From a virus (lineage: Duplodnaviria; Heunggongvirae; Uroviricota; Caudoviricetes): a stretch of 20,239 bases of DNA. The notes under the pieces are model-generated. The model was not told the DNA's origin. It ran no database searches and was given only the letters and a program-made list of their open reading frames with translations. Positions 12,861 through 20,239 of the stretch are shown in pieces (within the stretch, counting starts at the first letter, position 1; every line of letters starts with the position of its first letter). Made by a program: the position numbers and the translations under genes. The stretch lies in IMG/VR virus record IMGVR_UViG_2657244986_000010, positions 1 through 20,239 of that record; one strand, written 5' to 3'.

Positions 12861-15254
12861 ATGGCTAATTACCGTGATTTGTTAGAGCAGGCTGGCGCAC
12901 GTTACGGTGTGCCAGAAGGGTTGATGACTGCACTGGGTGCCAAGGAGTCTTCTTACAACCCTGCCGCAGTAAGCTCCGCCGGGGCTGTAGGATTGACTCA
13001 GGTCATGCCTGGGACATGGCGTGATATGGGTTATACCGATGAGCAAATGCAAAACCCCGAATATCAGGCTGACGCTGGCGCGCGCTATCTGGCAAAGATG
13101 TACCAGCAGTTTGGTAACTGGCGTGACGCTCTTCAGGCTTATCACGACGGTCCCGGCAACGTTATGAAGGCAAAGCGTGGTGAATATACGCCAGGACCTG
13201 AAGGCCGCGGTTACGTTGATGATCGCTTTGCTCAATGGGCGGGTGACCCGGTGACAGACTCAACAGTCGAACAGCGCGCCACCTCTGCAAAGGTACATCC
13301 TCAGCAAGACCCTAACAACCCGTTTGCACAACTGGAAGCACAGTCATCCGAACAAGTATCGGCATCAGGCGTGCAGTCAGACCCAAATAATCCATTTGCT
13401 CAGATTGAGCAGCAGGCAGCCAGTCAGCAGCCACCTCAACCCGTAAGTTCTGTCGCACCGAAACCTGTTCAGCAGCAAGGCGGAATAATGTCTGACCTTG
13501 GTAATGGACTTGCTGAAACCGGGCGCGGCTTACTACAGGCAGGAATCAACGTAGCGAACATACCTGCTGAACTCACTGATGCTGTAACAAGCGCGGCGGC
13601 TTGGGCTGGAGGTAAACTCGGCATTGGCGATGGTACATATCAACCAGCACCACGAGTAACAACGCAGGGATTAGAGCAGGACTTTGGCCTTCAGCAAGGC
13701 GCGCTGACTCCACAAACGACAGAGGGAAGGGTATTTGCTGAAGCATTGCCTTACCTCACTCCTGCTGGCGTTGAGAGAGCGGCAACACAGGCACCAACAC
13801 TTGCTGGTCGAATTGCTCAGGGTGCAACTCGTCTTCTAGCAGAAAACGCAGTTGGATCACTTGCTGCAAACAGTGCGAAAGATGATGCGGAAGCACTCGC
13901 CACCGATTTAGGCGTTGGTGTGCTGGCTGGCGGTGCTATTAACGCTGCCGGACGTGGATTAGGTGCTGCTTATCGTGGTGTTCGTGGTTCGATAGCACCA
14001 GAAGCTCAACAGGCTATCAGGTTTGCAGAGCGTGAAGGAGTTCCTCTGCACACCACAGACCTGTTACAGCCTACTTCCCGCGTCGGGAAAATGGCGCAGA
14101 CTACAGCAGAAAATATCCCCCTGGCTGGCACAAGCGGAATGAGAGCAACGCAACAGGAAGCGAGAAGCCAGTTGGTGCAGAGATTTGCCGATAAATTCGG
14201 TGAGTATGATCCAGCGGTTGTTATTGACAGCCTTAAAGCGAAAACATCAGGAATTCGTCGTGCCGCCGGTAATCGACTGGAGCAGGTTCAGAATGCTATG
14301 GCTGGAGTAAACATTCAGCCTGCGCGAGCAATTCAGCAGATTGATACAGAAATATCTAATCTGCAGAAGCTTGGTAAGGTCGCCGATAACGAGACTATTT
14401 CAAAACTTCAGTCCTATCGTGATGAGCTTGTTCGCAATGCTGGTCCTGATGGTCCGGTAAATCTGGATTTGAAGCAATTAAGCGATCTGCGCAGCCAGTT
14501 CAGAATGGACGTGAAGGGGGAACGACCAGTGTTGCCAAACCGTTCCGATGCTGCCATTCAGCGCGTTTACAAGGCGATGACAGACGATATCAATGGTGCC
14601 ATTGGTCAGAATCTTGGCAACGATACTCTCCGTAAATATCAGCAGGCCAATGCCGTCTACGCTGACGAAGCGGCGAAACTAAAGAATACCAGGCTGAAGA
14701 ATGTTCTCATGAAAGGCGACCTGACGCCGGAAGTTGTCAACAACATGCTATTCAGCAAGAACAAATCGGAAATTAAGACGCTGTATAACTCAGTTGGTCG
14801 TGTTGGCAGGGCGCAAATGCGCAATGGCATCATTGGAAAGGCGATGGAGAAATCAGGTGGTTCCCCTGACCAGTTCCTTCGGCAGCTTAACATCCTGCAA
14901 AACCAGACTGGCATCACATTTAAGGGGCAGGACGCTGCTTATCTGAAAGGATTAAAAAACTATCTGCAATCCACGCAGCAGGCTGCAAAAGCGGCAGTAA
15001 CAACACCCACAGGGCAGCAAACTATCCCGTTCATTATTGGGTATGGGACGGCAATGAACCCGGCGACAACTGGCGCAGCAGTAAGCTACGGACTTCTTAC
15101 TCGCGCCTATGAGAGCGAGCCATTCAGAAATGCAATGCTCCGAATGGCAAACACCCCACGCGGATCAACAGCGTTTGAGAAAGCCATGCAGCAGGCACAA
15201 AAGGCAATTAACGCTCTGACGCAGGGGGCTAAGTCTGATGCGTTGTCAGAATAG
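12861..15254 (+). CDS. Ejection protein (gp16-like) with N-terminal lytic transglycosylase (SLT) domain
   Basis: 797 aa. Residues ~20-100 carry the three family-1 lytic transglycosylase motifs: catalytic E-S (GAKESSYNP, Glu codon at 12945-12947), GLTQVMP, and AYHDGPGNV. Last gene of the ejection-protein cluster. Confidence 0.8.
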   Translation: MANYRDLLEQAGARYGVPEGLMTALGAKESSYNPAAVSSAGAVGLTQVMPGTWRDMGYTDEQMQNPEYQADAGARYLAKMYQQFGNWRDALQAYHDGPGNVMKAKRGEYTPGPEGRGYVDDRFAQWAGDPVTDSTVEQRATSAKVHPQQDPNNPFAQLEAQSSEQVSASGVQSDPNNPFAQIEQQAASQQPPQPVSSVAPKPVQQQGGIMSDLGNGLAETGRGLLQAGINVANIPAELTDAVTSAAAWAGGKLGIGDGTYQPAPRVTTQGLEQDFGLQQGALTPQTTEGRVFAEALPYLTPAGVERAATQAPTLAGRIAQGATRLLAENAVGSLAANSAKDDAEALATDLGVGVLAGGAINAAGRGLGAAYRGVRGSIAPEAQQAIRFAEREGVPLHTTDLLQPTSRVGKMAQTTAENIPLAGTSGMRATQQEARSQLVQRFADKFGEYDPAVVIDSLKAKTSGIRRAAGNRLEQVQNAMAGVNIQPARAIQQIDTEISNLQKLGKVADNETISKLQSYRDELVRNAGPDGPVNLDLKQLSDLRSQFRMDVKGERPVLPNRSDAAIQRVYKAMTDDINGAIGQNLGNDTLRKYQQANAVYADEAAKLKNTRLKNVLMKGDLTPEVVNNMLFSKNKSEIKTLYNSVGRVGRAQMRNGIIGKAMEKSGGSPDQFLRQLNILQNQTGITFKGQDAAYLKGLKNYLQSTQQAAKAAVTTPTGQQTIPFIIGYGTAMNPATTGAAVSYGLLTRAYESEPFRNAMLRMANTPRGSTAFEKAMQQAQKAINALTQGAKSDALSE
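13308..13409 (+). repeat. Two diverged tandem copies of a ~24-residue DPNNPFAQ-containing motif inside the gp16-like gene
   Basis: QQDPNNPFAQLEAQ... at 13308 and QSDPNNPFAQIEQQ... at 13380, spaced 72 nt (24 codons) apart, in the Gln-rich linker after the SLT domain. Codon usage differs between the copies. Confidence 0.6.
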
Positions 15255-15343
15255 CTTTGCAAACACCAGGAAAGTGCAAAAACCAAATATGTAGAATGTA
15301 ATATTCATCATATCTCTTTGCATAAATCCTCCGTAATGGATGG

Positions 15344-15637
15344 TTAGTTGCTGTCTTTTTTATATAGCTCCTTGAGCGTATCAAAGACAATTTTCTTAAC
15401 CATATCAGATTGTTGTTCTGCCATACGCTCTGCATCGTCAATGTAAACTGATGCAGAGCTTTGTTTATCCAATGATTCTTCAATCGCTGCAATTATCTCT
15501 GAGTTCAGCGACCTGTTATTCATCTTCGCACGCTGCTTAATTTTCGCGTGGAGTTCATGCGGAAGTCTCAAGTGAAACTGCGCCTCGTCGTATTTGCTGT
15601 ACATCCTTGATGCCTCACCAGTTGGGTGGAATGGCAT
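15344..15637 (-). CDS. mnt: Mnt-like ribbon-helix-helix repressor (Arc/MetJ family)
   Basis: RHH segment FHLRLPHELHAKIKQRAKMNNRSLNSEIIAAIEESL and C-terminal DAERMAEQQSDMVKKIVFDTLKELYKK closely resemble P22 Mnt as I recall it. The true start may be the internal ATG at 15604 (GAGG 8 nt upstream), giving 86 aa. Confidence 0.8.
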   Translation of the reverse strand: MPFHPTGEASRMYSKYDEAQFHLRLPHELHAKIKQRAKMNNRSLNSEIIAAIEESLDKQSSASVYIDDAERMAEQQSDMVKKIVFDTLKELYKKDSN

Positions 15638-15725
15638 CGTAACCTACTGGATAAATACTCAATAGTACCATTTCGGTATGCAATCACATCATGGTTGCAT
15701 CATATCATTCGTCTGGAGCAATGAA

Positions 15726-17810
15726 ATGTCAGATATCACCGCAAATGTTGTGGTAAGCATGCCTTCGCAACTCTTCACTATGGCTCGTTCTTTTAAAGCG
15801 GTTGCCAATGGCAAAATTTATATCGGTAAAATTGACACTGACCCGGTAAATCCTGAAAACCAGATTCAGGTTTATGTGGAGAACGAAGACGGCTCTCACG
15901 TTCCTGTTGCACAGCCAATCATCATTAACGCTGCTGGTTACCCGGTATATAACGGACAGATTTCCAAGTTTGTAACCGTGCAAGGCCACTCTATGTCTGT
16001 TTATGATGCGTATGGTGCACAGCAGTTCTATTTTCCGAATGTGCTGAAGTATGACCCTGACCAATTAAGGCAAGAATTAGCTTCTGACAGAGGAGCAACA
16101 TTATCATTAAGTCAGATAGCTACTTCTTACGGTCTTGATTTCTCGTTAGGCGGTGTATGGCGGGAGGGGGTGTTATCTAATGTTGATAACTGGTGGTGGT
16201 ATAATAATAAAATCTACACCGGTGGTAGCGGAAATCTGCCATCTATCCCATCAGCACCGTGGTATCCAATTCGCCCGGGATACAAATTAAACTTAACAGA
16301 CTTTATTACCTCCAAGGGTGTGAGCGATATTCTTGACGTAGTGGACTGGCAATGGGCTTTCGATAGCGCGAAGCTCAATGCTTCTCACACATCAATGCTT
16401 GACATGGACGCACGCGAATACACTATGAATTCCACTGGTTACATAGCGCCACAGGGTGTTGGTCTTCGCGGTCCGAAAGATGCAATGATGAACCCGTCTT
16501 TAGATGGTATAGCTGTTATATATGTCAATAAAGAGCCATCATCAAACGATGTGTTTGTGACAATGCAAGGTGGAAACGCATTTGAAAATTTCGGTATATT
16601 CTTTGCTCAGCAAATCTACACCACACTGGCCTCAGCGTTAGATACTGGGACGATGTTCAAACGCGTACCTGCAACTGGAGCTGGTGATGAAATTATGACA
16701 AAAGCATGCATATTAAAGGGGGTTAGCGCGTGTGGGGTTGCAAAACTTTGGAGTGGAAGCCTTGATGACAATGCGACAGGTGAATACGATGAGATAATTC
16801 GCGTTTCTGCCACGCCAAACAAATTTGGGCCTACATTTCGGTATGGTATTAGCACTGATTTTCTGCGCACAAAAACAGTTCATATTAATGCTAATGTTGT
16901 TAGCGCGTATCGAGCTAGATATGGAGTTGATTTTACGGTAAGAGCGCTAACCAGCGACAATACATCAGCCATAGGATTCCTTATTGAGCGCATGGATGGT
17001 GGTCTATTCGAGGATATCCTGACATATGGTGTTCCATTCTCGGTTGTTTTTGGTGCTGTTGGCGGGTCTGGCGGGGTTAACTCAGGTAGTGCAAACTTCG
17101 TATCATGTGGCTTTGACGCAACCTGTTTTCCTATCTACATTAACGCCCCTACAGGAGCATTTGGTATTTCTTTCTCTAACTGCCAGGCTGTCTTCGATGA
17201 GCAGTATGGTGACACGTCCGGAGCTCTGGTTTATTTGGGCGCAGGAGCTTCCTCACATCAGATAATGCTTAGCAATATCAAGGTGCAGAAGTCAGCAAGT
17301 TTCAATTATCGACCAGTAAGGGCTGTTTCTGGAAGTGCGGATAACAGGGTGACAATTTCAACCAGTGCGTTAACAGCCAGTCAAGACGTTCTTGATGAGG
17401 GAACCAGTAATCGCATAAGCATTATTGGATCAACAAGAAACCTCGGCGGCCTTAATATGATGACTAATACTACGGCAGAATCATCGCTGGTGTCATCAAT
17501 GGGGGAGTTGAATACAGTAGTAAGAAAGCAGTTATCAGTACCAATTCAAGCCGGCTCTTCATTTGTCAATTTGACAGTAACGTATCCATATACTGGTTGG
17601 CTTGCAACTCCTAATGTGATAACAGAGCTTGTCGGTGTGGCAATTCCTGGTCAACCAGATTCAACTCTTTACGACGTAAGAACGTTTTCTCGGACAGAAA
17701 ATGGGTGCGTACTTAGATGCACCTTGAGCTCAGCAGCGACTGGTAACGGTAACCTTATAGTTGACATATATGTTGTCGGTACGGTTCGGGGAACGCTCAA
17801 AGCGGTTTAG
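15726..17810 (+). CDS. Tailspike protein (conserved head-binding domain, divergent receptor-binding domain)
   Basis: Residues 1-113 ([11 protein letters not shown]...[21 protein letters not shown]...NVLKYDPDQ) match the conserved P22/Sf6/HK620 tailspike head-binding domain. GGAG Shine-Dalgarno 8 nt upstream of the ATG at 15726. The track's 15678 start adds 16 unsupported residues. Confidence 0.9.
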
Positions 17811-17886: not shown

Positions 17887-19002
17887 GTGAGCAAAAACAG
17901 GTTGCATGGATTAGATGCGTGGAGAGGTGTTGCTGCGATAATGGTTGCAATTTACCATTTTAACGTTAATTCGTTTATGCATGAATTAACGATAGTTAAA
18001 AACTCATGGTTATTCGTTGAGTTTTTTTTCGTGCTAAGCGGATTTATCATGATGTATAATTATTCAGATAGAATTAATAATCGTGAGCAGCTACTTTCTT
18101 TTTTATTTAAGCGTTTTTCAAGGATTTGGCCTCTTCATATATTTGTTCTTTTTTTATTTGTGCCTGTAGCTATTGCTGGATATGTAATCGGTAATATTGA
18201 TCCGTCTCGTTTTTCTGTTGCATCATTTATAAGTAATGTATTTCTTATCCAATCGTTAGGTGTGAATGATGGCGTGACATGGAACTCTCCATCGTGGAGT
18301 ATTAGCTCAGAGTTTTTTGTTTACGTTGCGTTTGGCCTTATCACACTAACCTTTACTAAAGGGTGGTGTCGTTTTATTATTCCGTCTTTGATTTGCTTTG
18401 TTATTTTGACTAATTTTTCGAATATGGGTGATGCATACAAGCTGGCCTTCTTTAGGTGTGGTTATTCTTTTTTTATTGGGTGTGTAGTATATTATTTGTA
18501 TAAATCAAAATCATTAAAATCTGGTACATGGTTAGAAATCCTATCGGTGGTTGCTGTTGTATTAACAATGTCATTATTTTTAATCAAAGGTAATGATTTG
18601 ATTGCATATTGCATGCCTTTTTTATTCTGTGCCATTGTTTTCTCGTTTGCTCGCGGGGATGGTGTAATTAGTAAAGCAATGGGAAATAATCTTTTTATAA
18701 AGATGGGTGAGGTTTCTTACTCTATATATATGACGCATGCATTTGTTGCTATTTGTATAAAAAGCTTGTTGCTTTTATTTGGAAAGTTTATTAACCACAA
18801 TTTTTTGGTTAAAATTGGTAACGAAACGCAAGTTAATCTAGGGGGAGTTCTAGCGAATAACTTATTGGATATAGTATTTTTGGTATTGGTCATATCTTTT
18901 TCAATGTTGACATATCGATATGTTGAGTCGCCATGTCAAAGAATACTCAATGCATGGTATAAAAATAAAAAGATGGTTGAGACATCAAATTTGGTTATGT
19001 GA
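17887..19002 (+). CDS. Acyltransferase-3 family integral membrane protein (O-antigen acetyltransferase-like conversion gene)
   Basis: GTG start at 17887 with an AGGGGGA Shine-Dalgarno upstream. N-terminal LDAWRGVAAIMVAIYH and internal WSISSEFFVY motifs typical of acyltransferase_3, with multiple hydrophobic helices. Visibly AT-rich relative to the structural genes. Confidence 0.85.
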   Translation: MSKNRLHGLDAWRGVAAIMVAIYHFNVNSFMHELTIVKNSWLFVEFFFVLSGFIMMYNYSDRINNREQLLSFLFKRFSRIWPLHIFVLFLFVPVAIAGYVIGNIDPSRFSVASFISNVFLIQSLGVNDGVTWNSPSWSISSEFFVYVAFGLITLTFTKGWCRFIIPSLICFVILTNFSNMGDAYKLAFFRCGYSFFIGCVVYYLYKSKSLKSGTWLEILSVVAVVLTMSLFLIKGNDLIAYCMPFLFCAIVFSFARGDGVISKAMGNNLFIKMGEVSYSIYMTHAFVAICIKSLLLLFGKFINHNFLVKIGNETQVNLGGVLANNLLDIVFLVLVISFSMLTYRYVESPCQRILNAWYKNKKMVETSNLVM

Positions 19003-19081: not shown

Positions 19082-20239
19082 TCAAGCATACTTTTCGTCA
19101 AGCCAATCTGCCCACCACTGCATCATTTCTCTGCGTTTATCGAGATACTGAGCATGGTTGTAAATCCCACGCACAGATCCGCCGTTGGCATGTGCCAGTT
19201 GCACTTCAATAGCATCAGCAGGCCATTCGTGCTCGTTCGTAATCGTGCTGAATTCATGCCTGAATCCGTGACCGCTTTCCAGACCTTCATAGCCGATTTG
19301 TTTGATCACAAGCAGTACAGCGTTCTCGCAAATTGGCTTCTTCTTATCGTTGCGCCCGGCAAAAACAAACTCTGATACTGGTTTGGTGATTGAGCTTAGC
19401 GTAGTGAGAAGTTCAACCACCTGGTCTGACATAGGAACCACATGAATTTTGCGTCCCTTCATCACACTGGCGTCGATGGTGATAATCCTGTTTTCAAAAT
19501 CGACGTTCTTCCATAGCATGGAACGAAGCTCTTTCGTTCTTAGGGCTGTGTAGCGTAAAACTTTGGTCGCAATGAGCGATACGATGCTTCCTGAAAATGT
19601 TGCCAGTGCTTTGTTGAATGCCGGGATCTGGTCTGCAGGAAGAAACGGGAAGTTCTTCTTGCGGTATCCCTTCATGGCGTCAGCAAGGTCAGGTGCCGGG
19701 TTATATTTAGCCCTGCCGGTGACAATAGCGTAACGGAAAACCTCGCCGCATCTTCTGCGTGCTTTGTTGGCTCGCTCCATTGCACCGCGATCTTCAAATC
19801 TGCGGATTACTTCCAGCAGTTGCATCGGCTCAATATCCTGAATCTCAAGACCGCCGATGATGGGTAAAATGTCGTCATCAAACATTTTGGCAAGTTCAGT
19901 TGCATAGCCTACTGACCAGACTTGCTTCTTGTGCTCGTACCATTCCTTGTAAATCGCACTAAATGAATTGTTGTTAGACGAAGCCTTTTTCGCCTTTACC
20001 GGATCGATGCCAACCGAGATGTCTTTCCTCGCAGTCCATGCCTTATCCCTTGCTTCCTGCAAAGTCATAAGCGGATATTTTCCGACGGTCAGGATTTTCT
20101 CCTTACCGTCAATCTTGTAGCGAAGCTGCCATACCTTTTTCCCGGATACAGGAACATAAAGGTACAGGCCATTACCATCGAGAAGGCGGTATGGTTTTTC
20201 TTTCGGCTTTGCTGCTTCAATCTGCTTAACGGTGAGCAT
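19082..20239 (-). CDS. int: Tyrosine recombinase / phage integrase (P4/P22-type with N-terminal arm-binding domain)
   Basis: 385 aa. N-terminal MLTVKQIEAAKP...YRLLDGNGLYLYV...WQLRY arm-type domain. C-terminal catalytic region with R, HGFRH and a Tyr in GIYNHAQY. Start codon is the reverse complement of the last 3 bases of the window. Confidence 0.92.
   Translation of the reverse strand: MLTVKQIEAAKPKEKPYRLLDGNGLYLYVPVSGKKVWQLRYKIDGKEKILTVGKYPLMTLQEARDKAWTARKDISVGIDPVKAKKASSNNNSFSAIYKEWYEHKKQVWSVGYATELAKMFDDDILPIIGGLEIQDIEPMQLLEVIRRFEDRGAMERANKARRRCGEVFRYAIVTGRAKYNPAPDLADAMKGYRKKNFPFLPADQIPAFNKALATFSGSIVSLIATKVLRYTALRTKELRSMLWKNVDFENRIITIDASVMKGRKIHVVPMSDQVVELLTTLSSITKPVSEFVFAGRNDKKKPICENAVLLVIKQIGYEGLESGHGFRHEFSTITNEHEWPADAIEVQLAHANGGSVRGIYNHAQYLDKRREMMQWWADWLDEKYA

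Follow-up and report, generated by a model that had tools for sequence, protein, structure and literature searches.

The DNA analysed here, 20,239 nucleotides of the IMG/VR record IMGVR_UViG_2657244986_000010 (positions 1 to 20,239; in the following the window), represents the right-hand 20 kb of a P22-like prophage (Lederbergvirus) that is integrated at argW of E. coli ST12468; it matches NZ_CP103694.1 with 100% identity. Between gene 16 and the tailspike gene it carries a homologue of the P22 repressor gene mnt, which is divergent from the tailspike gene and is not accompanied by arc or ant. On balance, we favour the view that this orphan gene encodes a functional Mnt with its own promoter and operator, which silences a residual rightward promoter and governs a leftward transcript of mnt and a small open reading frame (ORF). 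A Mnt tetramer would bind to a 17-bp site at 15664-15680, which abuts the -35 region of the leftward mnt promoter (Pmnt) and covers the start point of a weak relic of the ant promoter (Pant). Binding would shut residual rightward initiation into the tailspike gene and would also set the level of a leftward, prophage-expressed transcript. This transcript would comprise mnt, 20 nt later the ORF of a small membrane peptide, and then a stretch antisense to the end of gene 16. The evidence consists of the family membership of the protein, the homology of the control region to that of P22, the co-variation of operator and protein, the purifying selection on mnt and the conservation of the small ORF. 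The elements of mnt and its control region are the following.

15344 to 15604, minus strand: mnt homologue, 86 aa plus stop, with a ribbon-helix-helix (RHH) domain and the Mnt C-terminal tetramerisation domain.
15605 to 15637, minus strand: 11 extra in-frame codons of a 97-aa ORF, more likely mnt 5' leader than coding sequence.
15636 to 15662, minus strand: counterpart of Pmnt, with -35 TTGAGT (15657-15662), a 15-nt spacer and -10 TACGAT (15636-15641).
15631 to 15659, plus strand: degenerate counterpart of Pant, with -35 ATGGCA (15631-15636), 17 nt and a -10-like AATACT (15654-15659).
15664 to 15680, no strand: predicted Mnt operator AGTACCATTTCGGTATG, core TACC-N5-GGTA, placed by MAFFT register and co-variation.
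15704 to 15732, minus strand: second leftward promoter-like site CTGACA-17-AATGAT, confined to leaders of this type, without conservation in relatives.

The 97-aa ORF that can be read at 15344-15637 (minus strand) matches the Pfam family Arc (PF03869, 1.1e-14) and, with residues 68-93, Repressor_Mnt (PF11423, 3.3e-14). Matches were also obtained to the structures of the N-terminal domain of P22 Mnt (PDB 1MNT, 5.1e-19; query residues 6-79 against chain residues 3-76) and of the Mnt tetramerisation domain (PDB 1QEY, 1.7e-8). It is the C-terminal tetramerisation helix that sets Mnt apart from the dimeric Arc. P22 Mnt and the window protein share 47-49% identity over the full length, and the latter is a member of the P22 Mnt family. 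In the beta-strand of P22 Mnt, His6, Asn8 and Arg10 read bases; the window protein, with the beta-strand Q9-F-H11-L-R13, possesses Gln, His and Arg at these positions. In RefSeq (P22, Sf101, SE1, epsilon34 and others) and in PHROG 795, Mnt homologues are misnamed 'partition protein ATPase'.

The gene probably starts at 15604 and encodes 86 aa, and the gap to the tailspike gene accordingly measures 121 bp and not 88 bp, as had been given in the preliminary description of this locus. This start, the second ATG, was preferred because it is used by the Prokaryotic Genome Annotation Pipeline (PGAP) as well as by most gene callers, is preceded by the Shine-Dalgarno (SD) sequence GGTGAGG (15613-15619), and because the first ATG shares nucleotides with the -10 hexamer of the conserved mnt promoter; the 97-aa reading was rejected on the same grounds. 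In phage L and in Buttiauxella (L099), the frame upstream of the second ATG is closed. The leader of mnt contains a dyad of its own, GATGCC..CACC..GGTG..GGCATC (15609-15638), which holds the SD site. Its inner stem differs in sequence yet pairs in phage L (CACTT/AAGTG), Buttiauxella (GTCC/GGAC) and P22 (CACT/AGTG), and the dyad may exert translational control of mnt.

Judged from a MAFFT alignment of ten mnt intergenic regions, including the annotated region of P22 (Pant, Pmnt, O_arc and O_mnt), the gap is homologous to the mnt-arc control region of P22 with Pmnt, Pant and O_mnt. The preliminary description had placed the locus at the immunity I (immI) position of a P22-like phage and had proposed to align the gap with O_mnt and Pant; the alignment supports this placement, with the operator in register and a degenerate Pant. 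Promoters were scored with a home-made, approximate sigma-70 position weight matrix, which recovers the annotated P22 promoters Pant (16.9 bits) and Pmnt (14.5 bits). The Pmnt counterpart of the window, with a predicted start point near 15629, is in register with the annotated Pmnt of P22 and reaches 8.2 bits. In every mnt-only phage the site at this position is the best or near-best one directed towards mnt (8.2-11.9 bits), with TTGTTG-17-TACGAT in type-A relatives (9.4 bits), TTGTGG-17-TATGAT in L (10.7 bits) and TTGAGG-17-TAAGAT in Gally (11.9 bits). The Pant relic, on the other hand, reaches 7.1 bits versus 16.9 bits for Pant of P22, and the tailspike-directed strand does not exceed 7.1 bits in mnt-only phages. 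The hexamer in register with the P22 -10 region TATATT reads TAAATA in the window, TATATC in L and CAAATC in L009. The relic is not conserved in VSe13, L005, L009 and L096, and a consensus scan found no plus-strand promoter in the gap.

The predicted operator is located 1 nt from the -35 region of Pmnt and over the start point of the Pant relic, which is the geometry of O_mnt in P22. Its register in the alignment is occupied by AGGTCCACGGTGGACCT in P22 and by AAGACCACCGTGGTCTT in phage L; after an invariant CAAT there follow in register AGGTCCACGGTGGACC in P22 (O_mnt), AAGACCACCGTGGTCT in phage L and AGTACCATTTCGGTAT in the window. Operator and TACC-N5-GGTA are both unique in the 44-kb prophage locus. 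One site with two mismatches inside the capsid gene of this locus was rejected as a second target of the repressor and is taken as a chance match. Among 56 distinct relatives, the operator is polymorphic at 2 of 17 positions. In phage L, the last ~45 nt of the P22 gene 9 leader are joined after the operator; therefore, arc-sar-ant and its terminator are exactly what is missing in comparison to P22.

When the N-terminal beta-strand was paired with the upstream DNA in all loci fetched, four specificity classes were obtained.

HFNFR class, operator GGTCCAC-G-GTGGACC: P22, Pluralibacter, Pectobacterium.
QFNLR class, operator AGACCAC-C/A-GTGGTCT: L, SE1, Gally.
QFNFR class, operator ATATCAC-G-GTGATAT: Phlomobacter.
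QFHLR class, operator GTACC(A/G)T(T/C)T(C/A/T)GGTA(T/C): this window and E. coli, Salmonella, Serratia, Buttiauxella.

The predicted operator co-varies with the beta-strand over these four classes. Between P22 and the window, H6 and N8 are replaced by Q and H, and the operator changes from GGTCCAC-G-GTGGACC to GTACCAT-T-TCGGTAT. Buttiauxella possesses a perfect operator of the window class (GTACCA-TTT-TGGTAC), and in Citrobacter, a copy of mnt that is interrupted by an internal stop is accompanied by a mutated half-site of the operator (TACT). Because this co-variation is the strongest evidence, 15664-15680 is regarded as the operator, and not the dyad discussed below, and the protein is regarded as still being a DNA-binding repressor. 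A profile search of genome contigs with the Mnt alignment yielded nine loci, which added diversity but are too few for statistics. The four classes make the role of the orphan Mnt directly testable and represent natural specificity variants of a classic RHH model protein.

The protein matches reported above and the tblastn searches confirm that a Mnt-like gene stands next to the tailspike gene without arc or ant. P22 Arc, Ant and SieA and two other types of Arc and Ant gave no tblastn match to such genes, either in the window or across the entire 44-kb prophage locus; the three Arc types matched only the RHH domain of mnt itself, and the three Ant types and orf241 were negative in the 44-kb locus. 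The PGAP annotation contains no antirepressor gene, and no Rfam match, sar-type RNA included, was obtained in 14800-16300 at E-values up to 1. The same search for SieA (PF26849) detected sieA-bearing relatives. Thus, the earlier statement that no sieA is located between gene 16 and mnt holds, but the stretch is not otherwise empty, as it contains an ORF of 25 codons (15323-15246).

In comparison to immI of P22, the window shows the same Mnt family with both domains, the same position between gene 16 and the tailspike gene and the same orientation, a homologous leader, the -10 and -35 regions of Pmnt, and a 17-bp operator in register next to CAATA. In contrast to P22, it lacks arc, sar, ant and sieA, Pant is degenerate, and the divergent neighbour is the tailspike gene itself. 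An identical layout was found in phages IME10 and Sf101 (megablast, 97-98% identity). Among these megablast matches, the window-type mnt is unannotated in IME10 and called 'partition protein ATPase' elsewhere. A query consisting of the mnt N-terminus, the gap and the tailspike start, counted if at least 80% was covered, detected the junction in 229 of 5,426 complete E. coli genomes (about 4%), so that the comparison of relatives suggested in the preliminary description revealed the same layout without arc and ant in these genomes and in both phages. The gap of 121 bp is exactly kept in 60 of 78 close IMG/VR relatives. A mnt gene divergent from the tailspike gene without arc and ant also occurs in the Salmonella phages VSe13, SE1 and L and in coliphage Gally.

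The orphan mnt is, therefore, one more mnt-only 'ant moron', a common and already published kind of layout that was described for phages L, ST64T and ST104 (PMC2629481, PMC8022706); for the locus of phage L, the question of remnant versus new function has already been posed in print (PMC8022706; PMC2629481). The mnt-only morons of L, ST64T, ST104, Para1 and SE1 (Villafane 2008, PMC2629481; Zaworski 2020, PMC8022706) resemble the window in the divergent arrangement, the absence of arc-ant and the retention of Pmnt and a palindromic operator. They differ in their specificity class (QFNLR with AGACCAC-C-GTGGTCT versus QFHLR with TACC-N5-GGTA in the window), in possessing an additional ORF (60-120 aa) that separates gene 16 from mnt, with a terminator downstream of mnt, where the window has only the 25-codon ORF, and in a tailspike leader of a different type. 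What is added here for an orphan mnt is a concrete assignment of operator and promoter, together with evidence that the gene is kept by selection.

Rather than decaying as a remnant, the orphan gene is maintained by purifying selection. The ratio of non-synonymous to synonymous substitution rates (dN/dS) between orphan copies is 0.08-0.19, polymorphic sites among 56 distinct relatives amount to 10, 11 and 32% at codon positions 1, 2 and 3, and the gene is intact in 55 of these 56, one carrying a stop. Further dead copies are a frameshifted one in strain EC3 (L228) and a Citrobacter pseudogene. Operator, promoter and SD site of mnt are conserved across genera. Prophages of E. coli, Salmonella and Citrobacter with a full sieA-RHH-arc-ant cassette still keep a window-type repressor divergent from the tailspike gene. 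Since mnt persists beside the tailspike gene despite a complete immI, the mnt module adjoining the tailspike gene forms a stable, independent unit, which need not be replaced when a new immI cassette inserts next to it.

Such double loci (L005 5001-9938, L009 5001-9922, L101, L124, L145 and L178) possess two Mnt-like repressors per 'ant moron'; the Mnt-like gene on the tailspike side has the same N-terminal half and a different C-terminus. They also carry a second gene of an antirepressor family (orf241/248, PHROG 1726). In E. coli OHT76-1 (L229, NZ_CP135244.1 1453601-1460743), mnt is intact in a heavily deleted prophage remnant with torI, a gp20 fragment, gp16, mnt, the tailspike gene and intS.

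Downstream of mnt, the following elements were detected.

15246 to 15323, minus strand: hydrophobic ORF MQRDMMNITFYIFGFCTFLVFAKLF, 25 codons, unannotated, starting 20 nt 3' of the mnt stop.
15327 to 15332, minus strand: SD sequence GGAGGA of the small ORF, 3 nt before its ATG.

The product of this ORF, with a polar N-terminus and an 18-residue hydrophobic tail, is a candidate for a small membrane protein. The 94 loci found to carry the ORF all contain it in intact form, with 28 nucleotide variants and a ratio of non-synonymous to synonymous polymorphism (pN/pS) of ~0.1-0.3. It is present in Sf6 (NC_005344 13549-13623, minus strand), Gally, 683R2, 720R6, IME10 and VSe13, and as a form of 23 codons in phage L (L095, in the gap downstream of gp16) and BTP1; in the different versions, the conserved residues are encoded by different codons. 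No match to a Pfam-like, PHROG or NCBIfam family was obtained, and the ORF is annotated in no record inspected, including those of Sf6, Gally, 683R2, 720R6, IME10, VSe13 and phage L. Many Lederbergviruses, among them Sf6, L and BTP1, carry at the end of gene 16 a conserved, unannotated ORF of this kind with a strong SD sequence.

The simplest reading would be that the small ORF is co-transcribed with mnt from Pmnt. Co-transcription, or transcription from within mnt, is suggested because Sf6 and BTP1-type phages have a different sequence upstream of the small ORF, which is replaced by mnt in the window, and because no terminator-like site was found between mnt and the small ORF. An intrinsic terminator after mnt or after the small ORF was not found before ~15016 in the window, and none was found in BTP1 13600-14600.

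Several points weigh against the view of a functional Mnt that governs a leftward transcript. We infer DNA binding, promoter activity, co-transcription and any phenotype from the sequence. The operator of the window is a weak palindrome with 4+4 symmetric positions, versus 8+8 in P22, and Pmnt has a spacer of 15 nt, versus 17 nt in other type-A relatives, and a moderate score. There are two further leftward promoter-like sites, one at 15704-15732 and one at 15492-15519 inside mnt; expression of the small ORF could therefore be independent of Mnt. The two genes are not obligately linked, since in phage L mnt and the small ORF are kept apart by a terminator and an opposite-strand ORF, and since Sf101 lacks the small ORF although it carries mnt. 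No target of the repressor beyond its own region was found in the 44-kb locus.

A more far-reaching proposal, which we put forward only tentatively, is that mnt and the small ORF form an exclusion operon. The peptide, and not an antisense RNA, would then be the effector and would block DNA delivery via the C-terminal region of the gene 16 product (gp16), as SieA does, and Mnt would be retained to drive and tune the transcript. The comparison rests on phage BTP1, in which a leftward prophage transcript, STnc6030, runs from the tailspike gene's 5' end through the gap into the end of gene 16 (Owen 2020, PMC7067206). STnc6030 (D23580 403942-404727, equivalent to BTP1 13703-14488) is abundant, excludes BTP1 completely when cloned, and, after ORFs of >60 aa had been searched for, was regarded as an antisense RNA (PMC7067206). 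A homologue of the small ORF (MERDLLNFVFLIFGLVVGKLLFA, with the SD sequence GGAGGG, at 14083-14012 on the minus strand of NC_042346, L224) is located inside STnc6030, and the cloned fragment includes both this ORF and its SD sequence. The small ORFs of the window and BTP1 share the pattern M-x-R-D-hh-N...F-x-I-F-G...K-L-(L)-F, the position and a strong SD sequence, with many synonymous differences.

The single-nucleotide polymorphisms (SNPs) by which phages escape STnc6030 (404041-404078) are all non-synonymous and affect gp16 codons 583-595. Escape from SieA in P22 maps to gp16 G532 and P546 (Leavitt 2024, PMC10883804), and in a MAFFT alignment of gp16 the changes of the STnc6030 escape mutants fall into the same C-terminal segment, overlap P546 of P22 and lie eight columns after G532. 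By arithmetic from the published numbers, the Northern bands of ~500 nt would end just past the small ORF and short of the proposed 'seed'. SieA is a membrane protein expressed from the prophage, and its gene lies between gene 16 and mnt in the same orientation as mnt (PMC10883804). In contrast to the small ORF, it comprises 164 aa (versus 25 aa) and has its own promoter, and there is no sequence similarity between the two (tblastn). These observations suggest, as a hypothesis, that the small peptide is a miniature exclusion protein of the Sie type.

BTP1 differs from the window in that it has no mnt and STnc6030 starts inside the tailspike gene (BTP1 14488); in a comparison by eye, the STnc6030 promoter, located in the region of the head-binding domain, was not seen to be conserved in the window. 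The published mechanism of STnc6030 is RNA-RNA pairing. If the proposal is true, a published exclusion system ascribed to an antisense RNA may find a new explanation in the small ORF, as a mini-Sie protein. As useful new leads we regard the assignment of the specific operator, the series of co-varying operators and beta-strands, and the small ORF in its connection with STnc6030 and SieA.

It is doubtful whether Mnt mainly gates a promoter that reads into the tailspike gene. According to this explanation, Pant without arc-ant would serve as an early or auxiliary tailspike promoter, which is repressed in the lysogen and after induction. The relic ATGGCA-17-AATACT indeed occupies the homologous position and has its start point covered by the operator, and the repressor gene is the immediate neighbour of the tailspike gene in 28 of 28 loci among the matches listed. 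Furthermore, the ant moron of P22 and its repressors are thought to influence the tailspike yield (PMC2629481), and a deletion of the sieA region was used for robust tailspike synthesis after induction (PMC10883804). However, the relic scores far below Pant of P22 (7.1 versus 16.9 bits), and the hexamers in register with the P22 -10 region (TAAATA in the window, TATATC in L and CAAATC in L009) are without the key T. Moreover, the rightward site is not conserved in relatives that share the repressor, and the consensus scan detected none in the gap.

P22 Mnt silences arc-ant of superinfecting P22, and the orphan Mnt could act likewise in trans as an immunity function against Pant-arc-ant of incoming or co-resident phages with the same operator. 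Besides this role of Mnt in P22, the purifying selection on mnt despite the absence of an ant gene of its own would be in line with such a role, which had been considered in the preliminary description as a defence against phages carrying Ant. We consider it unlikely. A pattern scan of IMG/VR for the operator yielded, among the matches listed, 28 P22-like loci, all tailspike-adjacent, and 49 unrelated chance matches; in 28 of 28 P22-like loci, the GTACCATTTMGGTAT site lies between the repressor gene and the tailspike gene and never beside arc or ant, which speaks against a defence directed at Ant phages of the same specificity. In addition, loci with a complete immI use another RHH repressor, upstream of which TACC-N5-GGTA was not seen by eye.

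It is also improbable that mnt has lost its function and persists from a degraded immI solely because it is linked to the tailspike gene. The absence of arc, ant and sar, the degenerate Pant and the occurrence of dead copies (1 of 56 with a stop, the frameshift in EC3 and the Citrobacter pseudogene) would fit this explanation. On the other hand, the dN/dS of 0.08-0.19 between orphan copies, the retention of operator, promoter and SD site across genera, the co-variation of operator and protein, and the intact ORF in 55 of 56 close relatives with the junction in 229 genomes all contradict it. Of the earlier suggestion that ant was lost and a remnant repressor kept, the first part agrees with the absence of arc-sar-ant in comparison to P22, but a mere remnant would not be expected to show this selection and co-variation or to be kept beside a complete immI.

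An imperfect dyad in the gap had previously been proposed as an operator.

15678 to 15700, plus strand: dyad ATGCAATCA-CATCA-TGGTTGCAT, probable stem-loop in the 5' untranslated region (UTR) of the tailspike gene, 9 bp including one U.G pair.

The dyad is present and is longer than first described, with arms of 9 nt (ATGCAATCA at 15678-86 and TGGTTGCAT at 15692-700) that are complementary at 8 of 9 positions around the 5-nt spacer CATCA; it does not exceed chance, since an equal or better inverted repeat occurred in 432 of 5000 shuffles of the 88-nt gap (about 9%). It shares 3 nt with the predicted operator, and its right arm corresponds to TTGCAT, a motif of the conserved tailspike leader. 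The dyad is absent from L005, L009, VSe13 and L096, which have an identical DNA-binding domain and other tailspike leaders; at its place they carry another hairpin, CCGYAGC-N3-GCUGYGG. Read as plus-strand RNA, the mismatch of the window is a U.G pair, which variants change to C-G or U-A, and U.G or G.U pairs arise from three other transitions. A compensatory change from G-C to U-A is seen in Escherichia sp. E1V33. The variants keep pairing only when read as plus-strand RNA, and the substitution pattern therefore fits RNA pairing and not DNA symmetry. A count of the pairing in the hairpin (96.6% of cells paired, one double-sided change, 15-37 of 500 shuffles as good) is suggestive only, and in a fold of the gap the hairpin is part of the minimum free energy structure with weak z-scores of -1.2 (plus strand) and -0.4 (minus strand).

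The dyad is probably a stem-loop in the tailspike 5' UTR and not a Mnt operator, although the support for this is weak. That it is an operator, for this repressor or another factor, is most improbable in spite of its 9-nt arms, which are perfect (9/9) in some relatives, given that shuffled gaps match it so often, that it is missing from relatives with the identical DNA-binding domain, that its right arm belongs to the tailspike leader and that 15664-15680 is the site homologous in position to O_mnt. A hairpin, CCGUAGC-CAY-GCUGCGG, is present in tailspike leaders of the P22 type ~30 nt before the SD sequence (z-score -2.7 in phage L, L095 ~2385-2420). Two copies of the motif AAAATTCACCGTAGCCA(C/T)GCT are located between ant and gene 9 of P22 (L004 5043-5064 and 5153-5174).

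The genes on both sides of the mnt region are the following.

12861 to 15254, plus strand: 797-aa DNA-ejection protein of the gene 16 type, which carries an SLT lytic transglycosylase domain at its N-terminus.
15715 to 17810, plus strand: tailspike gene with a P22-type head-binding domain, SD sequence GGAG at 15715-15718, ORF 15726-17810.

The gene 16-type protein comprises 797 aa versus 609 aa in P22; its SLT domain matches Pfam with 2.8e-25, and its relatives match residues 208-797 only. The last three codons of gene 16 overlap the small ORF on the opposite strand. For the tailspike protein, the start at 15726, which is identical to the PGAP start, places the Head_binding domain at residues 1-113 (E-value 1e-66). 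An ORF of 710 aa from 15678 was rejected as the tailspike start and is considered an in-frame artefact.

In about 12 of 78 close relatives, a homing-endonuclease gene with HNH_3 and AP2 domains (164-179 aa, three sequence types) is inserted on the mnt strand after about codon 6 of the tailspike gene, which corresponds to about position 15745 of the window, and the first tailspike codons are duplicated. The insert was found in L013, L034, L036, L038, L039, L047, L048, L051, L078, L082 and L088; the window does not contain it.

On the 3' side of the tailspike gene and on the same strand, an Acyl_transf_3 gene, which likely encodes an O-antigen acetylase, is located at 17887-19002 of the window. 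It is followed by the gene of the integrase IntS (19082-20239), which adjoins tRNA-Arg (argW), and TorI is encoded at the far end of the prophage (L106 3210-3410). This arrangement of IntS and TorI corresponds to an integration module of the KplE1/CPS-53 type on a P22-like phage.

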